Source of the DNA: an uncultured Acidimicrobiales bacterium
GTDB lineage: Bacteria > Actinomycetota > Acidimicrobiia > Acidimicrobiales > Bin134
DNA: 64,000 bases
Assembly (NCBI GenBank): GCA_951813555.1
Contig: OX638344.1
Coordinates: 1,887,076 to 1,951,075, forward strand
Reading direction: 5' to 3'
Within the stretch, counting starts at the first letter, position 1, and each line of letters begins with the position of its first letter. A program made the position numbers and the translations under genes. Shown piece by piece: positions 37,475 to 49,509 of the stretch. The notes beneath the pieces were generated by a model. That model did not search any database, had not been told where the DNA came from, and saw nothing but the letters and a program-made list of their open reading frames with translations.

Positions 37475-37503
37475 ACTCTATTGGTCTAAGAGGCAAGAGG
37501 GGG

Positions 37504-39948
37504 ATGCTCTCTATGGGTGGTATGACAAACCGTGAGCTGTGCCGGGCGCTAGTGAAGGCCGAGTCAGAGAACGAAGCTATCCAGATACTGAAAAATGCCG
37601 GTTTGTGGAGCGATTTGGATTGTTGGACACCGCTTGGGGGTATCGACAACAACTACGGCACGATCATCAACCAGCAGGCTTCTGCTGAAGCGGCGCTGGC
37701 CGAGAAGATCACCAATAGCATCGACGCGAGGCTTATGGCCGAATGCCGCCGGGTCGGGCATGATCCGCAGGCGTCGCTCATGAGAGACGGTACTGAGATG
37801 CCGACCAGCCCACATGACGCTGTCGACACCTTTGGTTGCCACTGGAAGCACGTCGGTGAGAGGGCTGACGGGCTGACACCCCATGCCCAGAAAATTGCGG
37901 TGGTTGTGACGGGTAGGAAAAGGCCACACCCTGCATGTGTCTCGGTAGTAGACCAAGGAGAGGGTCAGACCCCGGATGCTTTCCCCGACACCTTTTGTTC
38001 CATCTATCGAAGCAATAAGAACAAGGTCAAATTCGTGCAGGGTCGCTACAACATGGGCGGCACCGGGACACTTCGATTCTGCGGCGACCACGGGGTCCAA
38101 CTAATCGTCTCCCGACGCGACCCGGCTATTGGCGATGACCCTGCATGGGGATTCACGGTGTTCCGCAAACTTCCCCCGGCCCATGACGAGCGCAATCCCT
38201 ACTGGGCCTACTTGGTTGCTCCGGTGGATGGCAGGGATGGAACGCCGCCAGGTCAGATACTCAGGTTTGCAGCTGACAGAGTGAAGCTACTGCCAAAAGG
38301 AGCCGCTGATGGTGGCCAGCAACAGCCCTGGACCGTGCCGGTAAGCCACGGCACGTTGGTGAAGCTCTACGACTTCATCAAGATCGGGAGCGCTTCCGAT
38401 ACGCGCCCTTCTGGACAGGCGATGTCGATGACAGCCCGACTGGAAGTTGAATTGGCAGATCCGGCTCTGCCCTTTCGGGTGCATGAATGCCGTTATGCGG
38501 ACTCAAGAGGGAATACAGCAGTCAATTGCGTAGGACTGGTCAACAGGTATGCAGCAAGGCGAAGCCAAAAGACGTTGGAAGACAGCTTCCCATTCACTGC
38601 CAAGCTGACCAGCCCTTCAAGCGTCAAGCCTTCAGGCCAGCAATTCAGTGTCGCCGTATATGCCTTCAAACAGGGTGAAGACGGACGTGCCCGAGGCGGT
38701 GAACGTCGCCGGGCCGAGCACGCCGTGGCTTTCACCGTCAATGGGCAGCTTCACGCAGGCTGGCACTCTCGGTTCTTCAGGAGAAAGGGTGTAGATCTTT
38801 CACTCTTGGCCGATGACCTCCTAGTGGTGGTCGACTGTTCGAAACTGTCCGATGAGGGGATCAGACAACTCTTTACCGGCGGGCGGGACAGGATGATTGA
38901 CGATTCGCCACTCAGGTCATGGGTTGAAAGTGAGTTGGAAGACGTGCTCAGTACCGACCAGCGACTCCGTAGCCTTCATCACGTTCGACTCGACGCTAGG
39001 CGAAAGAGCGAGCGCGGCAAGCGCGCCAAAGCCGCCGCTGAGATCGTTCAGAAGTTGCTGGCTGCTAACAAGAAGCTGGCCGAGTATCTGGCCGGAGGCG
39101 TGCTTCCCTCGGGAGAAGGGCCGGTTGGGCCCGGGCCGGTGAGCGAGCCTAGAGAGTTCATCGGGAATGACCCGCCGACATTTTTTAAATTGAGAGGCAA
39201 AGACAGACTGAACGCCCAAGTCAGCAAGTCCTGTTCTGTTGCGTTCACAACCGACGCGGTGAACGGGTACTTCGACCAGGGCCAGCACCTTCTCACGTTG
39301 GACAAGCAGTCAACACCTCTGATCCGCGAATACCTACACGATGGTCGTGCCAGCATCCGGTTTGAAATGCCCGAGAGTGCAGTTGCCGGAGACCACATTT
39401 CCGCTCGACTGGAGTCCTCGGGCCCTGGACTGCTCGCTCCTTTCGTCAACGAGTTCACCGTAGTTGTAATTGACCAGAGGGAAACGAATCCCGGACCCGA
39501 GGTCAACCCAGACCCTCCAGCTGGTTTCGATTTGCCTGACGCTCAAGAAGTCCGTAAACGCGATTGGAAGCGAGAAGAATTCACAGAATGGACAGGTGCC
39601 CGCCTTATCCCCGATGCAGACCCTTCTCAGAACCTGTGGCAGTGGAATTACGACCACCCGTTCCTCGTAGAAGTCCGGAATCGGCCGGAAGCTAGGGAGA
39701 AGCCGCAGGTCCAAGAGGTGCTGAATGAGAGATTCAAGAACTCAATGCTCGTCGTTGGCCTCTCCGCCCTGAGCGCGCACGCAGCTGCGCAAGACGCGGC
39801 GAAAAAGTCTATAGACGGAGAATCAGCAGCGCTGCTCGATCCTGCCGACTGGGTTGCAGTCGCAACCGATGCTCTTGCCCCAGTGGTATTTCCGGTCATC
39901 GAGTTCGGCGAGGCGATCACCGAGGTTCACCTGGAAGATGGCGACTAG
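37504..39948 (+). CDS. GHKL/Bergerat-fold ATPase (MORC-like / HATPase_c_3-like), large C-terminal region of unknown function
   Basis: N box EKITNSIDA, G1 box VVDQGEGQT, G2 box GRYNMGGTG. The start is uncertain (ATGs at 37504, 37513, 37522; AAGAGGGGG ends at 37503). The track ORF begins at 37453 and overlaps the GFA gene. Confidence 0.7.
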   Translation: MLSMGGMTNRELCRALVKAESENEAIQILKNAGLWSDLDCWTPLGGIDNNYGTIINQQASAEAALAEKITNSIDARLMAECRRVGHDPQASLMRDGTEMPTSPHDAVDTFGCHWKHVGERADGLTPHAQKIAVVVTGRKRPHPACVSVVDQGEGQTPDAFPDTFCSIYRSNKNKVKFVQGRYNMGGTGTLRFCGDHGVQLIVSRRDPAIGDDPAWGFTVFRKLPPAHDERNPYWAYLVAPVDGRDGTPPGQILRFAADRVKLLPKGAADGGQQQPWTVPVSHGTLVKLYDFIKIGSASDTRPSGQAMSMTARLEVELADPALPFRVHECRYADSRGNTAVNCVGLVNRYAARRSQKTLEDSFPFTAKLTSPSSVKPSGQQFSVAVYAFKQGEDGRARGGERRRAEHAVAFTVNGQLHAGWHSRFFRRKGVDLSLLADDLLVVVDCSKLSDEGIRQLFTGGRDRMIDDSPLRSWVESELEDVLSTDQRLRSLHHVRLDARRKSERGKRAKAAAEIVQKLLAANKKLAEYLAGGVLPSGEGPVGPGPVSEPREFIGNDPPTFFKLRGKDRLNAQVSKSCSVAFTTDAVNGYFDQGQHLLTLDKQSTPLIREYLHDGRASIRFEMPESAVAGDHISARLESSGPGLLAPFVNEFTVVVIDQRETNPGPEVNPDPPAGFDLPDAQEVRKRDWKREEFTEWTGARLIPDADPSQNLWQWNYDHPFLVEVRNRPEAREKPQVQEVLNERFKNSMLVVGLSALSAHAAAQDAAKKSIDGESAALLDPADWVAVATDALAPVVFPVIEFGEAITEVHLEDGD

Positions 39949-42900
39949 CCAGACTTTTCAGTCTGCGCGGGTAGCACGCCCATCCAGCAGACGACGCCGA
40001 TGTCTTCTTCGGTGATCTCGGGGGGTGGGGCGGAGGGGTCGATGTAGCGCAGGCCGTAGAACTCCACTAGATCGATGATCTGCTGGGCTGCTTCGGTTGG
40101 GGTTATGGCCTCGCGATCGAGTTCGCGTCTGATTTTGCCGAGGGGTTGTCGAATTTGGCTGCCTCGTTCTATTTCTAGGGCTTCATAGGCGGTGTGGGCG
40201 GTGGGTAGGGAGGATACGTCGGGGTGGTCCAGCACTTCGCGGGCCCACTGCTGGGTTGGTCCCAGGGAGCGTCCCGTGAGGTGGCGGGCGGCGTCGTTGT
40301 GCTCTTGGATGATCGAATCAGCCGCGGCCGACCACGCTGCTTCCAAGTCAATGGGCGGGCTGCTGACTCCAGGTGCCCGCCCGGGGTTGATGCGGCGCAA
40401 GATAACCGGCGGTGCTGACGACATGTCACCTTCGACGGAGATGTAGCGCCAGTGCCTTTCGCCGTCGCGAGTACGGCAGGCGAAGAATACGCCCGGCGGT
40501 CCGACTGATGGGACATCGGGTCCTTGGGAGAATGCTGCACCCACGCCCCAGGGCAACTCCTGCACCCTGTTCAGTTCGCCTTCGGAGCCGGCTCGTCGCA
40601 GTTCAGCTCTCAGCAATTCCGCGCTAAGGGCCTGCGGCACGTCTGCTGCGTCGGGTTCGTCAATCAGCGAGACGTCGCCTTCAGCCAAGCGGCGGGCATA
40701 CGACTGGATCTCCTCGTCGACATCTCCCTCCATCACCTCGATCTCCATCCCGTAGGGGCGGGCGGCCACGATCTTGCGGCGGATGGCGGCTTCGAGCCGA
40801 AGAAGCCGTTCCAAGTCGCCTTGTTCAGGCAGCATGGTGACAAGCGACACTTCCCGATGAGGGCTCTTCAGCCGAACTACGCGGCCGTACCGCTGCACCA
40901 CCCGTTGCGGGTTCCAGGGCATGTCGTAACTGATGACGGCCGCGGCTTGCTGAAGGTTCTGGCCCTCGGAGAGCACGTCATTGCCCAGCATCAGATCGAC
41001 TTCGCCGTTGGTTGGCTCATAGCCGGGACGAACTACTGTCTCAGGGCAGAAGTGAGCCAGCAGGTCGGTACGTTCGTCGGGGCTGGTATCGGCACCGATC
41101 ACCGTCACCCGGTGGCGTCCGTCTACTGGATCGGGCAGTTGATCGTCGAGATAGCGCACTGTGTCCGCGAACGCGGAAAAGACCACCACCTTCTGTGATG
41201 GGACTTGCTCCAGCAGTCGTCGAAGCAAAGCGAGCTTGGGATCGCCAGCGGCTTTGAGAGAGCGCAACGCCACCGCAGCTGCTTCTAGGCGGACGCGGTC
41301 GGCGGCCACATCATTGCGGTACTCGGGCCTGAATCTGCTTATCGGATCGGCATCAGTCTCGTCCAAGGTCTCAGACACCCACTCACTCAACCCAGTCTCG
41401 TCAAGTTCAAGCACAGCCGCCTCCCGCAGTGCGTTCCCGCTGAGCACCCGCCCTTGATCCCAGGCGTCGAGGAACACATTGTGGGCGGCGATCATGCGTT
41501 CGAGAGTGAGCAGACAAGCTTGCCAACATGACTCAAACCGTTTGAGAACCGCGGATTGCAGTAGCGCGCTAAGGACTGTCTCCTGTCCAGCTTCCTGGTC
41601 GCCGAGCCGATAGGAACTGGGCCTGTAGCGGGCCATGTTCAAGTGCTCGATATGGTAGGTGATGGTTTGGACCAGGCCTGGGTAGGCCGCATCCAGGTCA
41701 TAACGCTCGGTGGACAGAACCGGGGTGGGGAACGACACGGGGGTTCCGTCGGGGAAGGTCTCGTCGCTGTAGTGCCGTTCGATGAATCGGCGGTCTCGTC
41801 GGACGCTCACCCTGTCCGCCAGGGAGAACAGCACGTCGGGATTGAGGTTCTCGGGGTCGCGCTCATTGGCCCCGGCCCGCAGGAACAGCCGGCGCAGTGA
41901 CGGGATGCCATGGGAGGCAAACGCCCGATCGTGGTGGGCAAAGGCCATGACTAGGTGGTAGAGGTCCCACAATCCGTTGTTGATGGGGGTGGCGGTGAGC
42001 AGAGCTAAGTCCTTTTGCTGGCCGCCTAGGAGCCGCGTCGCGGCCCGGTACCAGGTGGTGTCAGGGGTGCGAAGTGCGTGCCCCTCGTCCATCACCACTA
42101 GCCGGTAGACGTCCTTGTCGCTGTGCAGGTGGCGGCGGGCGTTGGCGGTGCCTGCCCTCACCAACTGTTCATCGGCGGCAAGCTGGTGGTAGCTGACCAC
42201 TTGGGCGGGAAGCCGAGTTTGTCCCAATCGCTCCTGCCAATAGCTCACGAGTTGGGCAGGTGCCACCACTAGGGCGTGGGTGCCCCGGTGCAGCGCGTAT
42301 TCCTCGATGAGGGCGAGGCCGATCTCGGTCTTGCCCGTGCCCACGCCGTCGGCGTAGATCACCCCGTGATGTTCCTTGATGATCTGTAGCGCCCGATGAA
42401 ACCCGTCGCGCTGGAAGGCGGTCAGCTCCACGGCAGTGGGCGTCGGCCCTTCGGGCTGGTCGTCGTCGAGACCCAGCAGCTCCAACAACGCCCGCAAGTA
42501 GATGTCGCGAGGGTCGAGCAGTCCGACTTCGGGGAAGAGCAAGCCCCGCAAATCGGCTTTGAATTCTTGGGCTTCGTTCCACAGCCGTTCGAACCAGGCC
42601 ACGGCTTGCTTGGCCACCGGGGGGTCGTACTGCACCAGCCCCAACTCCAGGTTGGCGAACAGGCCGCCGCCGGTGAGGTTGGCTGAAGTGACCAGCGCGG
42701 CCCGGGCATCGTCTTTGTTGCCAAACAGATAGGCCTTGCCGTGGAGGAATTTGTCGGTGTAACGCCGCACCTCTACCTCGGGCCGCTCAAGCCAGACGTC
42801 GAGGTCAACCAGCTTGGCCGCAGCTCGGCTGGGCGGAAACCGGGCTAGGTCGCGGTCGGCCCGCAGCCCTTCGAGGGCCAACTCGAAACGGGAAACCGGC

Positions 42901-43124
42901 ACTTGAACGCCCAGGCCTGGGGCAGGTGCCACCCCCAGCAACAGCCGAATGGTGCGCCCGTCAGCCACCGCAGTAGCCAAGTGGTGCAGGCCCCCCAGAT
43001 TCACATAGCCGGTGGCAATGGAGAGTCCGTGGTGGGCGGCAAAGTCGTCGAGCAGGTAAGAGAGCGCGTCAGCGTGGCGGTTGCCGTCGGCCAAGTTGTC
43101 GAGCAGGTAGGGACGCTCGGGCAT
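39945..43124 (-). CDS. PLD (HKD) nuclease domain fused to SNF2-family helicase
   Basis: HKD motif FLHGKAYLF...ALVTSANLTGGG. Helicase motifs ADGVGTGKTEIG, VMDEGHALR, LLTATPINN, SEGQNLQ, MPWNPQRVVQRYGRVVR. The ATG overlaps the upstream TGA by 1 nt. Confidence 0.85.
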   Translation of the reverse strand: MPERPYLLDNLADGNRHADALSYLLDDFAAHHGLSIATGYVNLGGLHHLATAVADGRTIRLLLGVAPAPGLGVQVPVSRFELALEGLRADRDLARFPPSRAAAKLVDLDVWLERPEVEVRRYTDKFLHGKAYLFGNKDDARAALVTSANLTGGGLFANLELGLVQYDPPVAKQAVAWFERLWNEAQEFKADLRGLLFPEVGLLDPRDIYLRALLELLGLDDDQPEGPTPTAVELTAFQRDGFHRALQIIKEHHGVIYADGVGTGKTEIGLALIEEYALHRGTHALVVAPAQLVSYWQERLGQTRLPAQVVSYHQLAADEQLVRAGTANARRHLHSDKDVYRLVVMDEGHALRTPDTTWYRAATRLLGGQQKDLALLTATPINNGLWDLYHLVMAFAHHDRAFASHGIPSLRRLFLRAGANERDPENLNPDVLFSLADRVSVRRDRRFIERHYSDETFPDGTPVSFPTPVLSTERYDLDAAYPGLVQTITYHIEHLNMARYRPSSYRLGDQEAGQETVLSALLQSAVLKRFESCWQACLLTLERMIAAHNVFLDAWDQGRVLSGNALREAAVLELDETGLSEWVSETLDETDADPISRFRPEYRNDVAADRVRLEAAAVALRSLKAAGDPKLALLRRLLEQVPSQKVVVFSAFADTVRYLDDQLPDPVDGRHRVTVIGADTSPDERTDLLAHFCPETVVRPGYEPTNGEVDLMLGNDVLSEGQNLQQAAAVISYDMPWNPQRVVQRYGRVVRLKSPHREVSLVTMLPEQGDLERLLRLEAAIRRKIVAARPYGMEIEVMEGDVDEEIQSYARRLAEGDVSLIDEPDAADVPQALSAELLRAELRRAGSEGELNRVQELPWGVGAAFSQGPDVPSVGPPGVFFACRTRDGERHWRYISVEGDMSSAPPVILRRINPGRAPGVSSPPIDLEAAWSAAADSIIQEHNDAARHLTGRSLGPTQQWAREVLDHPDVSSLPTAHTAYEALEIERGSQIRQPLGKIRRELDREAITPTEAAQQIIDLVEFYGLRYIDPSAPPPEITEEDIGVVCWMGVLPAQTEKSG

Positions 43125-46100
43125 CAGCTCAGCTCGTGGAGTCGGCGGACCAGGGCTTCTCGATAGACAGGGGGAACCGCGTCAGTGGTGAAGTCTTCGA
43201 ACATTGTTTCCATGTCTGCCTCCGTGAGTTGCCAGGCCCGCGCCACCCGGGCATCGATGTCTATCCGCAGGCGTTGTCGCTTATCAGGCAGCAGGGGACC
43301 GCAATCAACTCCGGCGGCTGCAGCGAATTCGACATAGCGCTTGTCGATCGCCGATAGGCGGGCAGCCGCATTGGCAATTTCAACGAAATCCGAATTACTC
43401 AGATCAGGGACTGCCATTGCCTCGAGGAGAAAGAAATTGAAATTGGCCTCAACAAAGCGTCGAGCCTGCCAGTCGAACGGCAGGCTGTTCATGATTCCCA
43501 GGCAGGCTGCTTGGGCAAGTTCTGAACCAGAAATGAATGCCAAGTACGGAGCGCTATTTGCGAAAAAGACTTCTGATGGTGCTAGGCAGGCGCGCACTGT
43601 TCTGCTGTCGTCAGATCGCGAGATGCCTCGGAATGCCAGCCGAGCACGGTCCAGTTCAGCCGAAACTGCTTGGCGGCGGTCCTTCACCGGGGTGGACTCT
43701 GCGAGCACCGACTTCAACCCAGGCCGGGTCTTGCGGACCTTCTTCCAAACCATGTCATTGGTCGGGCATAGCCGGGCTTCAGCCCCGTGAGGGTCGTACT
43801 GGTCGAAGCTCTCGCCCTTCCACAGAGGCAGCCCTGTAGTTGCATTTCGCCACAGATGCTTGTCGTTCGTCTCATCAAGCTCTCGAACCGGAAAGCACTG
43901 CCATTTTCCACCCGCCCCCTTCGGAAATGGCGATCCTGTTCGGAGCTTGGCCAACAACTCGGCCTCTTCCTGTGACCGGAGCCTGGGAGTCATCCAACCG
44001 GAGGCGAATGCAGAGGGCGAGACAAGGATCCCCGGCGAAGAAGCCTGGTGCCGCCAAGCTTCAACCGAATCGGCGATACCGGCGATCTCAACCCTGTGAC
44101 TGGTGTCGGGAGTACATTTCGCCGCCACTGCGAGCACAATTCCATATTGAGGGTGGGTGTCGAATATCCAGAGCCGCCGGTTTACCAAGAAGTCGATTCG
44201 TCGGGCCGACATTTGGGTGTAGAGCCAATCTCGAAACCCTTCCGACCCCTTGTTGACAAATGCTCCGCCGGGAAGCACCACGCCGATTGCTCCGTCAGCG
44301 CGGACCAGGGTGCGGTAGCGCTGACAGAAGTACTTGTAGAGGTCAGGGTCGCCAGCGGTGGATTCGAACTCCCCGGAAGCTAAGGCCTCCCGTTGAGCCT
44401 TGGCCCGTCCTTGATCTGCGTCTAGCAATTCAGCAAGTTCGGGACGTTCGGCCAACAGGTCGGCCATTGCAGCGTCGCGTTCACTCTCGGGTAGCCCGTG
44501 TAACCCAGGGAGGTGCAATCCGCACAGTGACAGTTTCTCAACGGTTACTTCCTCCCACGGGGGATTGCCCACCACTACGTCGAAGCCAGGGCGGTCGCGA
44601 GAGAATGCCCGGGGAAATTGGAGCGGCCAGTGCAGGAAGGCGTGCGTGCTGCCGAGTTTGACGGCGTGCTGCACAATCGCCTGGCCGTTGTGGCCGTTTG
44701 TGCCAGCGATCACATCCCGGCCGTGTAGTTCGGCATGGCCCCGAGCGCCGATTAGGCCGAACCCCTCTGCTGTCCAAAGGTCGAAGAGCCGTTGCAGTCC
44801 CTCAGTGGCCTGGCGGGCTTCTTTATCGGCAGCCTTGCTGGCCTTCACCTCAGCGGGGGTGAGGTCGTCGATGTCGGCCAGCCGAGCGGAGGCCTCAGCG
44901 GCATCGGCTAGGGCGGTTTGCAAGGTGTCAGCTTGAAGTGTGCCCTCCCGGATCACGGTCTTGGCGTTGACCACCCCGATTAGGGAGTTGCCCACCACCA
45001 CGTTCCGGTCCAAATAGGCCAGCGACAGCCCCGGCACGAACGACGCAAGCCACAGCGACAGGGTGGCGATCTCCGCGCCCATGGGGCTGCGATCCACTCC
45101 GAACACACAGTGCTTGAGCACAAGTCGGCGCAGCAAGGCTACATCGGTGACTGCTGAACCCATCAAGGTGCTGTCGCGGAGCCGGTTCAGCGCCTCTCGC
45201 ACCCCAGGGAGCGGATGAGCGGCCAGAAAGGCCACAGTCTGATCGGCTAATTCCTCGGTTACCTGCACCAGAAAATGGGCACTGCCGCAGGCCGGATCCA
45301 GTACCGCGAAATCGAATAAGTCGCGGGCGGCCTGCTCCGGGTCGGTGTTGATCTGCTGGCGCACCCGTTCTAAGTGCTTTTGAAAGGCGGGCCGCACTGT
45401 GTGGCGCACCAAGTGTTCAACCAACGAGACCGGGGTGTAGTACACACCCCCCGCCTTGCGGCCTCCTTCGTTAGTCAGCCAAAGCAGCGACCCGGCGGCA
45501 ACCCCGGATTGATTCCCGTTCGTAGCCTGGTTCTCTGCTTGGCCTTGGTCGGGCAAGTAGCGGTCTATCTTCACGTCGTAGCGCAGCGCCCGGTCGGCCA
45601 CCGACAGCCGCAGGCTGAGCAGGGCTTCGTAGATGTGGCCCAAGTGGCCGACCTCCAACGACGAGTAGTCGATGCCGTGTCCGGTGGCGGTGTCGCGCCC
45701 CACAGCCAAGAGCACTCGAGCGAAGTGGGGGTCGGCCAATTCCAAGTGCTCCAACAGCTCGGCCCCCTCGAAATCGGTCGCCGCGAACAGTGCCCCGTTG
45801 TAGGCGGGCACCCCCCAGGCCGGGTTGCCGTCGCGCAAGGCGCCCACCAAGATCGTGAAGCTCTTCCACAGAGCCGTTGATTGCGGGGTCAATCTGCTCT
45901 TGGTCTTGTGAGCTTCGCCCACCAGCTCGGTGAGTGAGTGGCGCCGGTAGGTCTCGTTGTCCACCGGCAGAAAGTGGGAGCTCTCGGCGTAGAGCACGAA
46001 TAGCAACCGGAACAGCAGGGTCAACGCCGCCCTTTCCAACTCCAGCCGCTGCCGGTCGTCGCTGGCATCGAGGCCGCTCTGTCGGGTCCAATGATCGAGG

Positions 46101-47092
46101 CCCTCGGCCAGGGCGGGCAAGGCTTCTTGGCGGATGGTGTGGTCGAGCCGCTTGCGCAGCTCGATGCCGAAGGCTTGGGCTTCGGCTTGGAGTTCGGCCA
46201 GTCCGCCCTGAGCCAGATAGCGGGGGGAGAGCAGGGCCAGGTAGGGCCGGTTCTCTTGGCCGAGAAGGTCGGCGTCGAGGTCGAGCCACTCACCGGTGGT
46301 AGCGGACGGGTCGCAGTCGAACAGCCGGTATTGGTTGCGACACGCCATGATGCCGTAGCGGACGCCGTGCTGGTGGCAATCCGAGGCCAAAAGGCCCTCA
46401 GCGGGACGGCCCATTTCGTCGACACGGACGAAATGCTCAGGCTCGGCCCATGGGTGGACCATGGCCACCGGCCGGCCGTCAAATCGGGCCAGGTAGCCCC
46501 GTTGGGGGAGCATCTCAATTTCGTAACCCATCCCATGGAGCAGCGTCTTCCAGTCGCCGATGACTGACAGCCTCAGGGTGATCTCGCTCGCGTCTACCCA
46601 TCGGTCGGGATGATCGCGGAACCGAGCCTCCAGCGTGTGATGAGTGAGCAGACCGTGGACCACCTTGCCCCGACCGGCCAGCCGGACGACCTCACCGGCC
46701 AAGTGGCGGACTGCGTCGAGGCTGTGCATTGAGGCGGTGCCCTCGATGGCCGCGGACAGCTTTGCGCAGTCCACTGAGCGGATGGGCTCGTTGAAAGTAC
46801 GGGGGCCGAGGGTGCGGACGCTGTCGGGCCGCTCGGGATCGTCGATCACCAGCAAATAGCGGAAGTCCATCTTGTCGGCGTGCTCTCGCCAGCGGGCCCG
46901 CAGGCTGCGCTCTTCCGGCTTCTCGGCGATGGCCACCTCAATCTTGTTGACCCGCACCGACCGTCTGATGCCGGACCGGTTGGGCATCTCGCGAGCGATC
47001 CCCAGCCCCATCAGCCGGTTAAGCAGGTCGTCGGCATTCACCGACCTCAACTGTACGCGGCACCGATCAACGACAGCGGTGTTTGCCGCCAT
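43124..47092 (-). CDS. Large gamma-class N6-adenine DNA methyltransferase (Eco57I/MmeI/PglX-like architecture)
   Basis: 1322 aa. Motifs GVYYTP, VLDPACGSAHFL (motif I) and VVGNPPW (motif IV), plus the LLFRLLFVLYAES helix. Extra ~330-aa N-terminal region. Confidence 0.85.
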   Translation of the reverse strand: MAANTAVVDRCRVQLRSVNADDLLNRLMGLGIAREMPNRSGIRRSVRVNKIEVAIAEKPEERSLRARWREHADKMDFRYLLVIDDPERPDSVRTLGPRTFNEPIRSVDCAKLSAAIEGTASMHSLDAVRHLAGEVVRLAGRGKVVHGLLTHHTLEARFRDHPDRWVDASEITLRLSVIGDWKTLLHGMGYEIEMLPQRGYLARFDGRPVAMVHPWAEPEHFVRVDEMGRPAEGLLASDCHQHGVRYGIMACRNQYRLFDCDPSATTGEWLDLDADLLGQENRPYLALLSPRYLAQGGLAELQAEAQAFGIELRKRLDHTIRQEALPALAEGLDHWTRQSGLDASDDRQRLELERAALTLLFRLLFVLYAESSHFLPVDNETYRRHSLTELVGEAHKTKSRLTPQSTALWKSFTILVGALRDGNPAWGVPAYNGALFAATDFEGAELLEHLELADPHFARVLLAVGRDTATGHGIDYSSLEVGHLGHIYEALLSLRLSVADRALRYDVKIDRYLPDQGQAENQATNGNQSGVAAGSLLWLTNEGGRKAGGVYYTPVSLVEHLVRHTVRPAFQKHLERVRQQINTDPEQAARDLFDFAVLDPACGSAHFLVQVTEELADQTVAFLAAHPLPGVREALNRLRDSTLMGSAVTDVALLRRLVLKHCVFGVDRSPMGAEIATLSLWLASFVPGLSLAYLDRNVVVGNSLIGVVNAKTVIREGTLQADTLQTALADAAEASARLADIDDLTPAEVKASKAADKEARQATEGLQRLFDLWTAEGFGLIGARGHAELHGRDVIAGTNGHNGQAIVQHAVKLGSTHAFLHWPLQFPRAFSRDRPGFDVVVGNPPWEEVTVEKLSLCGLHLPGLHGLPESERDAAMADLLAERPELAELLDADQGRAKAQREALASGEFESTAGDPDLYKYFCQRYRTLVRADGAIGVVLPGGAFVNKGSEGFRDWLYTQMSARRIDFLVNRRLWIFDTHPQYGIVLAVAAKCTPDTSHRVEIAGIADSVEAWRHQASSPGILVSPSAFASGWMTPRLRSQEEAELLAKLRTGSPFPKGAGGKWQCFPVRELDETNDKHLWRNATTGLPLWKGESFDQYDPHGAEARLCPTNDMVWKKVRKTRPGLKSVLAESTPVKDRRQAVSAELDRARLAFRGISRSDDSRTVRACLAPSEVFFANSAPYLAFISGSELAQAACLGIMNSLPFDWQARRFVEANFNFFLLEAMAVPDLSNSDFVEIANAAARLSAIDKRYVEFAAAAGVDCGPLLPDKRQRLRIDIDARVARAWQLTEADMETMFEDFTTDAVPPVYREALVRRLHELS

Positions 47093-47136
47093 GGCTCCCC
47101 ACTTTGGAAGATAGATGTGTGGGGGAAGTTAGATGT

Positions 47137-47165
47137 ACTGTAATTACTGGAAAATCATCAGTCAA
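47137..47165 (-). promoter_or_regulatory. Sigma-70-like promoter candidate for the methyltransferase-helicase operon
   Basis: On the minus strand: TTGACT (47165-47160), a 17-nt spacer, then TACAGT (47142-47137). It lies ~45 nt upstream of the ATG. The imperfect palindrome CCAGTAATTACAGT overlaps the -10. Confidence 0.45.
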
Positions 47166-47199
47166 GAGACCTGAGTTAGGTCACATGATGGCTCAAGCA

Positions 47200-47775
47200 T
47201 CAGCGTTGAGCGTTGCGCCGACTTCGTTCTCTTGCAACTTGGCGCTCAACGCCTGTGGTGTTCCACCGGTATTGCGCCATTTTCCTAGTCACCCCAAATT
47301 TTCTTGCGATCTGCTCGATTGCTGCGTCTTCTCGAGCATGTTGGAGAAGGAGCTTTCGAGGTAGGAGCAAGGTCCCACCAAGGGCCGTGGCTTCCTCTTC
47401 TTGCCCTGGCTGGCAGGTGCGGAACGGGACTCCGTCCAGATACTGAATTTCTGCAAGTTCATGGTCGAGGATGATGTGTGCCAATTCGTGTGCGATGTCG
47501 CTGGCTTGCCGTCCAGCGCTCATGAGGGGATTAAACACAATGACGTGTCGTTCGTTGATCTCAAATGTGCAGGCCGAGAACGCATAAGTTTGAATGCGCT
47601 CGATCTCTTGAAGCCGCTCCAGCGGTACAAGATCGGCTGCTGAGATGACCTGTACATCTAGTTGCTCAGCCACCGCCGTGAGGTTTAGGGGTTTGGAGTT
47701 GGTAGCTCCGACCCTTGCTCGGAGCTCCTCAGCGATGCGCTCTGCTTGAGTCTTGAATCCGCGCGGAAGTGTCAC
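47200..47775 (-). CDS. ImmA/IrrE-family zinc metallopeptidase
   Basis: 191 aa with the HEXXH motif HELAHIILDH. It abuts the upstream XRE gene (stop and start are adjacent). Confidence 0.8.
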   Translation of the reverse strand: MTLPRGFKTQAERIAEELRARVGATNSKPLNLTAVAEQLDVQVISAADLVPLERLQEIERIQTYAFSACTFEINERHVIVFNPLMSAGRQASDIAHELAHIILDHELAEIQYLDGVPFRTCQPGQEEEATALGGTLLLPRKLLLQHAREDAAIEQIARKFGVTRKMAQYRWNTTGVERQVARERSRRNAQR

Positions 47776-48375
47776 TCACAGGACTCCATCGGCATCGAGT
47801 GCGTTGAGCTCGGAGCGCATTTCCTGGAGAAGGGCGCCGAGGCGGTCAGCAACCCCTGGCCGAAGAACAGAAGCAGCGCGCAAGTGGCATGCGACTGTTG
47901 GAGGATGCGAAGGCTCACGCGCCAGGGCTTCGTACATGTCCCGTACGACCGACGCAATCCTTGAAGCGGCATCTTGCTCAAGCCTGGGGTCGGTCAGAAG
48001 ATGCTGCAAGACGAGGTCTGGGGTCTCCGACTTGCGGGGGGCTGCCGAGATAAAGAACGTCTCAGGCGGAAGGTGAAGCCAAGCGCACAGCCTCAGGAAG
48101 GTTCTGAGGTCCGGCTGGGATCCCGCTTCGACGCGTGACCACGTCATGAAGCTGACCTCCGCGGTTTCAGCAGCTCTCCGCATCGATAGCCCAGCTGATG
48201 TTCGTCGTTCTCGTAGCATCTCTCCTAGAGCTGCTACGTCAAGGTGGGCAACGTCTTGGGCTCCGGAAGCGGTGTCGCTCGGATCTGACCCCGGAGAGGG
48301 CTTTGACGGCGGCACATGTTCACCGTAACAGCAAGCAGCTGGTGATACTTGGATGGGCTGGTGAACTAAACTCAT
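47776..48375 (-). CDS. XRE-family helix-turn-helix transcriptional regulator
   Basis: HTH LGEMLRERRTSAGLSMRRAAETAEVSFMTWSRVEAG. ATG at 48373-48375, with GTG one codon upstream. The N-terminal ~50 aa are low-complexity, so the true start may be internal. Confidence 0.75.
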   Translation of the reverse strand: MSLVHQPIQVSPAACCYGEHVPPSKPSPGSDPSDTASGAQDVAHLDVAALGEMLRERRTSAGLSMRRAAETAEVSFMTWSRVEAGSQPDLRTFLRLCAWLHLPPETFFISAAPRKSETPDLVLQHLLTDPRLEQDAASRIASVVRDMYEALAREPSHPPTVACHLRAASVLRPGVADRLGALLQEMRSELNALDADGVL

Positions 48376-48500
48376 CACCTAACGGGCATTGCCCCTTTGC
48401 TGTGTCATCTCTCTGATATGGTGATGGCACGTCTGGCCTCGTGGCGCGGCGCACGAATGCAGGCATCGCGACCACTCGGACGCGATTTCGAGAGAGGCAA

Positions 48501-48701
48501 ATGTTAGTGATTGTCAAGAGGAAGAGGTTCCTTGGAAACACCAACACGTTGGAGGTGCATGACACCCACAACGAGAAGAACGGGTGCCAGCTTGACAAGA
48601 TCAAGTTGGAGCACCGCAGGTGGTACGACTCCCTCGCGGAGGCGAAGCGCGACAAGCGCTATGACAACTGCCATTGGTGCCTCGGTGGTAGCACTCGATG
48701 A
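48501..48701 (+). CDS. Small Cys-containing protein resembling the Ada-type zinc-binding domain
   Basis: 66 aa from ATG 48501, with GAGAGAGG upstream. The pattern VHDTHNEKNGCQLDKI......YDSLAEAKRDKRYDNCHWC resembles YH..C..i....f.s..eA...Gy..C..C. Confidence 0.5.
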   Translation: MLVIVKRKRFLGNTNTLEVHDTHNEKNGCQLDKIKLEHRRWYDSLAEAKRDKRYDNCHWCLGGSTR

Positions 48702-48743
48702 ACGATTCGACACCTCTTACGAATTGGGAAAGGGGGTGAGACT

Positions 48744-48857
48744 ATGGCAAAGCAAAAAGCGCATCGCTCGGCAGTGACGGGCCGCTACGTGAAGGCTTCG
48801 ACTGCAAAGCGAAACCCGCGTACGACTGTGTCTGAGACCGTCAAGCGTCGTAAGTGA
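48744..48857 (+). CDS. 37-aa highly basic small protein (below the ORF-track cutoff)
   Basis: ATG 48744 is preceded by AAGGGGGTGAG. Translation: MAKQKAHRSAVTGRYVKASTAKRNPRTTVSETVKRRK. A strong hairpin follows immediately. Confidence 0.5.
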   Translation: MAKQKAHRSAVTGRYVKASTAKRNPRTTVSETVKRRK

Positions 48858-48861
48858 GCAT

Positions 48862-48900
48862 TTGTTGGCGCGGCCGGAGATTTTCTGGCCGCGCCAACAA
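48862..48900. terminator. Perfect 14-bp stem hairpin (terminator-like)
   Basis: TTGTTGGCGCGGCC (48862-48875), 11-nt loop, GGCCGCGCCAACAA (48887-48900). There is no clear T-tract. Confidence 0.6.
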
Positions 48901-48910
48901 AGTTCCATCA

Positions 48911-49396
48911 ATGGATTTATTTAGAAGAACTAATGTAGAGCGAAAGAGAGGAATTGTGGTCATCAAAAGGGTGATGCATCCAACTATCCTGACCATCGTT
49001 GCAGTCCACTATTCCATATTGTTTGCCGCGAGTGCTAACGATTTAGAGTTGAATGATAGAATGAGGTACCTATATCTTATCTCTGCGGGTCTATTTTCTG
49101 TTGTATGGGGCGGGGCAATTTCTTGGCTCTACATCCATAGAGATTCAGATTCCAAAGGGGATTTTGACCAGTCTAGAGATAGCATGCAACAACTCGCGCT
49201 ATTCAGTCCAGCACTAATCATCTCGCTAGTTCTTGCGGGATTATCTTCTATCTTTCGTTCGTCTGAAGGATGGGTCGATGCTATTTCGATTGCGTATCTC
49301 GTTTCCTTGCTCGTAATAATCCCAGCGGTTCTTGTTATGATTATTACGCACTTTTATCAAGTGAGGGAGCGAAGTAAATCCAGCCAGCGAAGCTGA
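48911..49396 (+). CDS. Four-TM membrane protein, very AT-rich gene, no family recognised
   Basis: 161 aa from ATG 48911. Four hydrophobic segments: ILTIVAVHYSILFAA, YLYLISAGLFSVVWGGAISWLYI, LALFSPALIISLVLAGLSSIF, AISIAYLVSLLVIIPAVLVMIITHF. A hand count of line 49021-49080 gives 23/60 G+C. Confidence 0.65.
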   Translation: MDLFRRTNVERKRGIVVIKRVMHPTILTIVAVHYSILFAASANDLELNDRMRYLYLISAGLFSVVWGGAISWLYIHRDSDSKGDFDQSRDSMQQLALFSPALIISLVLAGLSSIFRSSEGWVDAISIAYLVSLLVIIPAVLVMIITHFYQVRERSKSSQRS

Positions 49397-49509
49397 TGGA
49401 AGTTGTCTAGTGGAGCACAGCCTCTAGTTTCCAGCGACTGCCAGAGCCACTAATGCCGACTTTCTTGGATATGCCTAGTATAAGTTGCTTGTAGTCGGCA
49501 GAGTCATAG

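Follow-up and report, generated by a model that had tools for sequence, protein, structure and literature searches.

A gene pair encoding an XRE repressor and a zinc peptidase stands directly upstream of a methylase-helicase operon in the window, the 64,000-nucleotide stretch of DNA that was analysed. The genome from which the window comes is assembled as one 3.8-Mb contig, and its relatives are sponge-associated Acidimicrobiales MAGs. The initial annotation had suggested that this pair might make the operon inducible by DNA damage or infection.

The pair and the operon share an island of ~12 kb, flanked by a GFA/IclR gene pair and the mttB operon, whose G+C content is 55–63% against about 67% around it (Table 1). 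On the other side of the pair, a gene for a zinc-ribbon-like protein of 66 aa is read divergently, with a gene for a 4-TM protein beside it on the plus strand. Inspection of 37475–49509 found no tRNA, integrase, excisionase or phage genes in the island. Toxin–antitoxin (TA) genes occur around it, with Phd/VapC nearby, and related loci hold PIN/Phd genes. The XRE, peptidase and small divergent genes have dN/dS values of 0.06–0.20, which indicate purifying selection on all three.

Table 1. Genes and sequence elements of the island, in window coordinates
Feature	Position	Strand	Remark
GHKL-like protein, 831 aa	37453–39948	+	convergent with PLD-SNF2 gene
PLD(HKD) nuclease and SNF2 helicase fusion, 1059 aa	39945–43124	-	overlaps methylase stop
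Type-IIG/Eco57I/DrmMI-like N6-adenine methyltransferase, 1322 aa	43124–47092	-	first gene of the operon
Leader with anti-Shine-Dalgarno element	47095–47128	-	conserved in 22 loci
Promoter of the methylase operon, TTGACT-17-TACAGT	47137–47165	-	inside the 107-nt gap
M78 (ImmA/IrrE/CapP-like) zinc peptidase, 191 aa	47200–47775	-	Pfam and PADLOC matches
XRE repressor gene (CapH-like), 179 aa from GTG at 48315	47776–48315	-	frame open to 48378
Extended -10 (TGTTACGGT) of XRE promoter	48322–48330	-	sequence reading
Box B (AAGTATCACCA), candidate operator	48340–48350	-	two mismatches to AAGTnnCAnTG; over XRE promoter -35
Box A (AAGGGGCAATG), candidate operator	48387–48397	-	over -35 edge of small-gene promoter
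Extended -10-like element (TGATATGGT), divergent small gene	48414–48422	+	sequence reading only
Zinc-ribbon-like protein, 66 aa	48501–48701	+	divergent from XRE

The repressor and the peptidase

The initial annotation had recognised an XRE helix-turn-helix gene and an HEXXH peptidase gene that abut, lie upstream of the operon and run in its direction, and all of this held on closer analysis. The XRE open reading frame (47776–48378) matches Pfam HTH_31 (E=7.3e-10, residues 50–106), and the peptidase matches Pfam Peptidase_M78 (E=7.8e-18) and the PADLOC capP profile (E=3.7e-13). The XRE stop codon TGA (47778–47776) is followed directly by the peptidase GTG (47775–47773), and this abutment or a 4-nt overlap recurs in relatives. 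Both genes are on the minus strand together with the operon, and the peptidase gene is separated from the methylase gene by 107 nt. A likeness to the ImmR/ImmA, DdrO/IrrE and CapH/CapP pairs had also been proposed and is borne out by relatives of 51–68% identity, whose divergent neighbours are CBASS operons and ubiquitin-like (Bub) operons. The pair belongs to the CapH/CapP kind of repressor/protease module.

The first ~21 codons of the XRE frame are doubtful. The orthologue in locus L001, which is 98% identical, has a stop codon within the stretch upstream of the GTG equivalent to 48315, so translation probably starts at that GTG and yields 179 aa. The structure model of the repressor comprises an HTH (27–87) and a helical, four-helix C-terminal domain (97–175), with an invariant CHLRAA..RPGV stretch (residues 143–155) in a lower-confidence part of the model. 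A fold search with this model matched the HTH domain alone and gave no C-terminal match to CapH or DdrO; the C-terminal domain, of ~80 residues and four helices, has no detectable match to that of CapH. Among PDB sequences the best match of the HTH was C.BclI (E=0.024). The controller (C) proteins C.BclI and C.AhdI of restriction-modification (R-M) systems offer a parallel to the window, as their XRE-type HTH genes directly precede an R-M-like operon and run in its direction. These C proteins, however, are HTH-only, with 70–100 aa and no peptidase partner, whereas the window repressor, at 179 aa, is paired with a peptidase and has a further domain.

The catalytic site of the peptidase is intact, with an H-E-x-x-H motif (HELAH, 96–100) and a downstream Glu ligand, E126. 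Across 43 relatives H96, E97, H100, C121, E126 and R89 are invariant, and in the AlphaFold model (pLDDT 89) a beta-hairpin insert (109–120) directly precedes C121. Because a single-sequence search of PDB sequences gave no relevant match and a profile of the 43 sequences reached CapP, IrrE and PprI only marginally (E about 0.5), a fold search was needed to place the protein. It matched the model to IrrE and to PprI with ssDNA (3dti, 8sln; TM 0.48–0.57), and also to an HTH-peptidase regulator of M. tuberculosis (6cz6/6cyj, TM 0.56), which ranked ahead of them. The model stops after a helical linker, without a C-terminal GAF domain, and the capP profile match covers positions 4–154 of 242.

Our reference for CapH/CapP was the work of the Corbett laboratory on the CBASS of E. 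coli MS115-1 and Thauera sp. K11 (PDB 7t5t, 7t5u). As in these modules, a defence island of the window has an XRE gene with the gene for an M78 HExxH peptidase immediately behind it. Two features of the peptidase are likewise shared, namely an insert with an invariant cysteine that precedes the third zinc ligand and follows HExxH, and an invariant arginine seven residues before the first histidine (R89, corresponding to R90 of CapP). C121 brings to mind the cysteine-switch loop seen in roughly a third of CapPs, but the spacing differs, the cysteine lying 21 residues after the second histidine as against 13 for C113/C114 of CapP. Unlike CapP, the window peptidase has only 191 aa and is missing the GAF domain, which in canonical CapP forms half of the ssDNA groove (PMC13228613). 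This GAF-less form is new, and a CapP without that half of the groove raises the question of how sensing works. A short, GAF-less ImmA-type peptidase with an XRE protein is likewise found in ImmR/ImmA modules (ICEBs1, phage phi105), a likeness from which autoregulation would be expected; unlike those modules, the window pair has no int/xis, conjugation or phage genes beside it and no relatives in phage collections. The DdrO/IrrE (PprI) system of Deinococcus shares the peptidase fold and, by analogy, may share the same repressor-cleavage logic, but IrrE has an HTH and a GAF domain and a chromosomal regulon, and the Deinococcus genes are unlinked.

Promoters on either side of the pair

The gap that separates the peptidase and methylase genes contains a promoter with homologues both in loci that carry the pair and in loci that lack it. 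In the leader that belongs to it, an anti-Shine-Dalgarno sequence, CTTCCCCCAC (47128–47119), can pair with and mask the ribosome site of the methylase gene, GTGGGGAG (47102–47095); its general form is a CTTCCC(C) element 20–25 nt before a GGGAAG/GGGGAG ribosome site. The arrangement of promoter and leader is present in 22 Acidimicrobiia loci (among L001–L014 and L046–L073), most of them without the pair. In the automatic alignment the base pairs of the leader hairpin are conserved, and compensatory changes are absent. No terminator-like site was found between the peptidase and methylase genes, which makes induction by read-through possible.

Two candidate elements near this gap were tried and rejected. 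A 10-bp inverted repeat in the 3′-terminal part of M78, considered as a terminator, is unconserved and has no U-tract. The palindrome GTAATTAC, which covers the -10 of the promoter in the gap, was considered as an XRE operator. It occurs in the window and L001 alone and is not conserved in orthologous promoters; it was discarded for that reason and because the promoter occurs without the pair.

A natural deletion in two related loci separates the operon from the repressor. In L068 (6371–6378) and L069, 730 bp equivalent to 47880–48609 are missing, so that nearly the whole of XRE is lost together with the two divergent promoters and the 5′ part of the small gene. These loci retain intact genes for the methylase, PLD-SNF2 and GHKL proteins, and an orphan, intact M78 gene stands before the operon. 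The suggestion that the operon is off until induced finds no support in these observations, since most homologues of the operon have no pair, loss of XRE spares the operon, and the gap is free of the candidate operators described next.

In the window and its relatives, the extended -10 of the XRE promoter sits 6 nt before GTG 48315, and the sequence TGnTACnnT upstream of XRE is kept in all relatives inspected. So short a distance suggests that the XRE mRNA would be leaderless or near-leaderless. Relatives carry two copies of AAGTnnCAnTG upstream of XRE at conserved positions. The exact motif occurs in only 16 of 89 loci, and 15 of its 22 matches fall in XRE-upstream regions; from this enrichment we infer that the boxes are candidate XRE operators. 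The two boxes of the window are degenerate, with one and two mismatches, and are confined to 48340–48397. Box A, whose position is constant across relatives, lies in the palindrome GGGCAATGCCC. The gap (47093–47199) contains no copy of AAGTnnCAnTG, even with one mismatch allowed. The window differs here from the C-protein systems, in which C-boxes are bound before both the regulator's own gene and the nuclease gene, and it differs from them also in having the methylase gene first in the operon. The refined motif replaced a first guess, AAAGTGTCA, that was barely above shuffles.

The zinc-ribbon-like family to which the 66-aa protein belongs has 77 clusters and no Pfam model, with H20, C29, H38 and C60 invariant and C57 almost so. 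Searches with the window protein against Pfam, NCBIfam, PADLOC and PDB sequences returned no match; its likeness to the Ada zinc domain is one of motif spacing only. The small gene is found beside the pair in all methylase-type loci and only in those, with remnants in L068–L070; its place as the conserved divergent partner of the pair is new. In Gallaecimonas sp. GXIMD4217 (L089 6967–8785) a homologue is read divergently from a BrxR/WYL regulator, and a YdjM-family gene follows it. The role of the zinc-ribbon protein is of interest because its gene adjoins two damage-responsive regulator classes.

Neighbours of the pair and of the operon

CapH+CapP regulators beside defence systems, including DISARM, have already been published (10.1101/2022.04.27.489752; PMC13373217). 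We surveyed the family of the window pair in metagenome contigs, after a sample of 400 genomes of the phylum had yielded no close homologue of the peptidase. The survey comprised 70 non-redundant loci (50–62% identity). A divergent gene run was present in 26 of the 32 loci that had 2 kb or more of upstream DNA, and its genes were mostly ThiF (20), Multi_ubiq (9), DUF6791 (6) and SMODS (5). A sizeable co-directional downstream gene was present in only 11 of the 40 loci with sufficient downstream DNA; among these genes no family recurred and R-M genes were absent, so regulation of a downstream operon is not a habit of the family. The neighbourhood pattern of the metagenome loci is the published CapH+CapP pattern.

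The neighbourhoods of eleven pair relatives and one small-gene homologue were inspected individually. One relative is divergent from a type III CBASS, another from a type II CBASS carried by a conjugative element, and another from an operon containing E2. The relative in Amycolatopsis japonica stands beside a Bub operon and that in Actinomadura beside a SMODS gene. In one further case the divergent neighbours are a pair of genes without known identity, in another the surroundings consist of small unannotated genes only, and some relatives share the methylase-type layout of the window. One relative lies 16 nt upstream of hsdM in a co-directional type I R-M operon, a gap that implies co-transcription there. 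In published CapH/CapP loci the operon is on the opposite strand, and the relatives follow this rule with their CBASS and Bub operons. In the window, by contrast, the opposite-strand slot holds only the 66-aa gene, and the methylase operon is co-directional and downstream. This co-directional arrangement in series with restriction-type operons is new. CapH/CapP switches are known as regulators of abortive-infection operons that are always divergent from them, and placement in series with a restriction operon would bear on how first- and second-line defences are coordinated.

A DISARM locus of Nocardia wallacei that has a CapH-CapP fusion (Lau et al. 2022) resembles the window in joining a DrmMI-like methylase, SNF2/PLD and a regulator of the CapH/CapP type. 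The window, however, is without DrmA/DrmB, its regulator consists of two genes, and the orientation differs. Searches for the DISARM core returned only DrmMI-like and DrmD/DrmC-like matches, all under the NCBIfam cut-offs, and no DrmA/DrmB in the island.

Viewed from the operon, the link to the pair proved weaker than the initial annotation had supposed. A close copy of the pair lies within 8 kb in only 3 of 66 related operons (L001, L002 and L051), and a Pfam tally of the genes preceding 57 operons counted four ORFs with M78. Methylase and PLD-SNF2 are themselves direct neighbours at most of the 66 related loci; where there is enough sequence, almost every locus has them at least linked. Within the genus, 11 of 40 genomes have an orthologous PLD-SNF2 and three have the peptidase, and the pair is present in three of the 11 members that carry the operon; in one close relative, G403, the contig ends inside the methylase gene. 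At five loci (L003, L010, L012, L014 and L046) the operon begins ~150 nt past mttB with nothing between. The PLD-SNF2 tree places pair-bearing operons in two Acidimicrobiia sub-clades, interleaved with pair-less ones. Pair and operon diverge in step (about 70% vs 72% identity), and, as the loci are all at one chromosomal hotspot, vertical descent could explain this.

The hotspot also shows variation in the operon and its surroundings. Locus L002 (880–8033) contains XRE, M78 and a truncated methylase remnant, then a duplicated 3′ fragment of mttB, after which comes a complete methylase-PLD/SNF2 operon with an L009-type promoter; read from its sequence, the arrangement looks like a cassette replacement at the mttB/IclR hotspot. 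The methylase of the window is 87% identical to that of L001 (8001–11984), and the PLD-SNF2 and M78 proteins are 97% and 99% identical, respectively. The methylase differences cluster in residues 781–1260 (minimum 53% at 961–1020) and 481–540, a pattern as expected if target-recognition regions had been swapped. The GHKL-like gene is present in only ~8 of the 66 methylase-containing related loci, plus L068/L069 and G403. Present or absent independently of the XRE/M78 pair, it is a second optional accessory of the operon.

What the switch may control

The explanation that we prefer is a CapH/CapP-type stress switch that acts on itself and the small gene and gives an inducible top-up to a constitutive operon; taken whole, it has in our judgement an even chance of being right. 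From the boxes and from what is known of the family, XRE would bind the two AAGTnnCAnTG-like boxes in the 185-bp region 48316–48500, and once bound would silence its own near-leaderless XRE-M78 transcript and the gene for the 66-aa zinc-ribbon protein. Upon DNA damage or infection, the GAF-less M78 peptidase would cut the C-terminal domain of XRE, and both promoters would open. The methylase-PLD/SNF2 operon would be expressed constitutively from its own promoter, and induced transcripts that continue into it by read-through would make the switch an inducible boost. The switch probably controls mainly the small zinc-protein gene on its other side, and to the expression of the operon it would contribute a top-up at most.

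Of the earlier proposal that the operon is inducible, the possibility of read-through survives, there being no terminator, but there is no support for the operon being held off, as it has its own promoter in loci without the pair too. The accompanying argument, that methylation delayed relative to the nuclease would be self-toxic, largely falls away, because the methylase gene comes first and a basal promoter exists; with the methylase transcribed first and the genome already modified, a boost would not be self-toxic. An XRE/ImmA pair before a defence operon should accordingly not be annotated as implying that the operon is silent until induced, because the operon here has its own conserved promoter and leader.

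A possible, though clearly less probable, reading is that the switch regulates itself and the zinc-ribbon gene only, the operon being fully constitutive and brought close by packing at the hotspot. Control of a divergent operon is the norm of the family (metagenome survey; Lau et al. 2022), and the constant company of the small gene and the pair at methylase-type loci fits such control, as does the position of the Gallaecimonas homologue beside BrxR/WYL, another damage-responsive class. The operon's own promoter, the many operon homologues without the pair and locus L070, which keeps the pair at the same hotspot with the methylase operon missing, point the same way. Against this stand the lack of a terminator-like site between pair and operon, the abutment of the peptidase stop on the operon promoter in L051 and L073, and the co-transcription implied at the type I R-M locus.

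The two remaining explanations place the function of the pair elsewhere or in the past. It is unlikely, in our view, that the pair is a remnant of prophage or ICE immunity (ImmR/ImmA), or a decaying switch whose original divergent cargo was lost, even if the divergent slot has tiny genes only, the window boxes are degenerate and L068/L069 and L070 are deletion derivatives. A decayed prophage or ICE immunity region had been considered in the initial annotation and finds no support here: the island is without integrase, excisionase or phage genes, a search of 50,697 phage records found no pair relative, and 2.9 million viral contigs gave only two distant matches, of 32–33%. The low dN/dS values, moreover, indicate working genes. 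An addiction module of TA type, in which the pair would stabilise the island with the peptidase as a toxin or as an antitoxin-degrading factor, seems very unlikely. COG2856-Xre pairs were predicted as TA-like modules by Makarova et al. (PMC2701414, PMC3632139), and the TA-rich surroundings, with their Phd/VapC and PIN/Phd genes, would suit that role. Characterised members of the superfamily, however, act as regulators, and the family is consistently beside immune operons. The orphan peptidase tolerated without XRE in L068/L069 also argues against a toxin that needs an antitoxin.

Extending the stress-switch explanation, we tentatively put forward a broader proposal, which we think rather doubtful in its entirety. 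The zinc-ribbon protein, of 63–66 aa, would be an undescribed damage-inducible factor in stress or defence that was captured independently by two unrelated, ssDNA-responsive regulator classes, BrxR/CapW-like in Gallaecimonas and CapH/CapP-like here. The short CapP would sense by means other than the published peptidase-GAF groove, and sponge-symbiont Acidimicrobiia would have wired the module in series before a methylation-dependent restriction operon, giving that operon a damage-inducible boost.

Pair-bearing defence islands often also hold an HTH-M78 fusion protein of 380–393 aa, which in L071/L072, L076 and P0076 is placed on the opposite strand a few kb off. The window's own genome encodes a 373-aa HTH-M78 fusion protein at C1:3136295.
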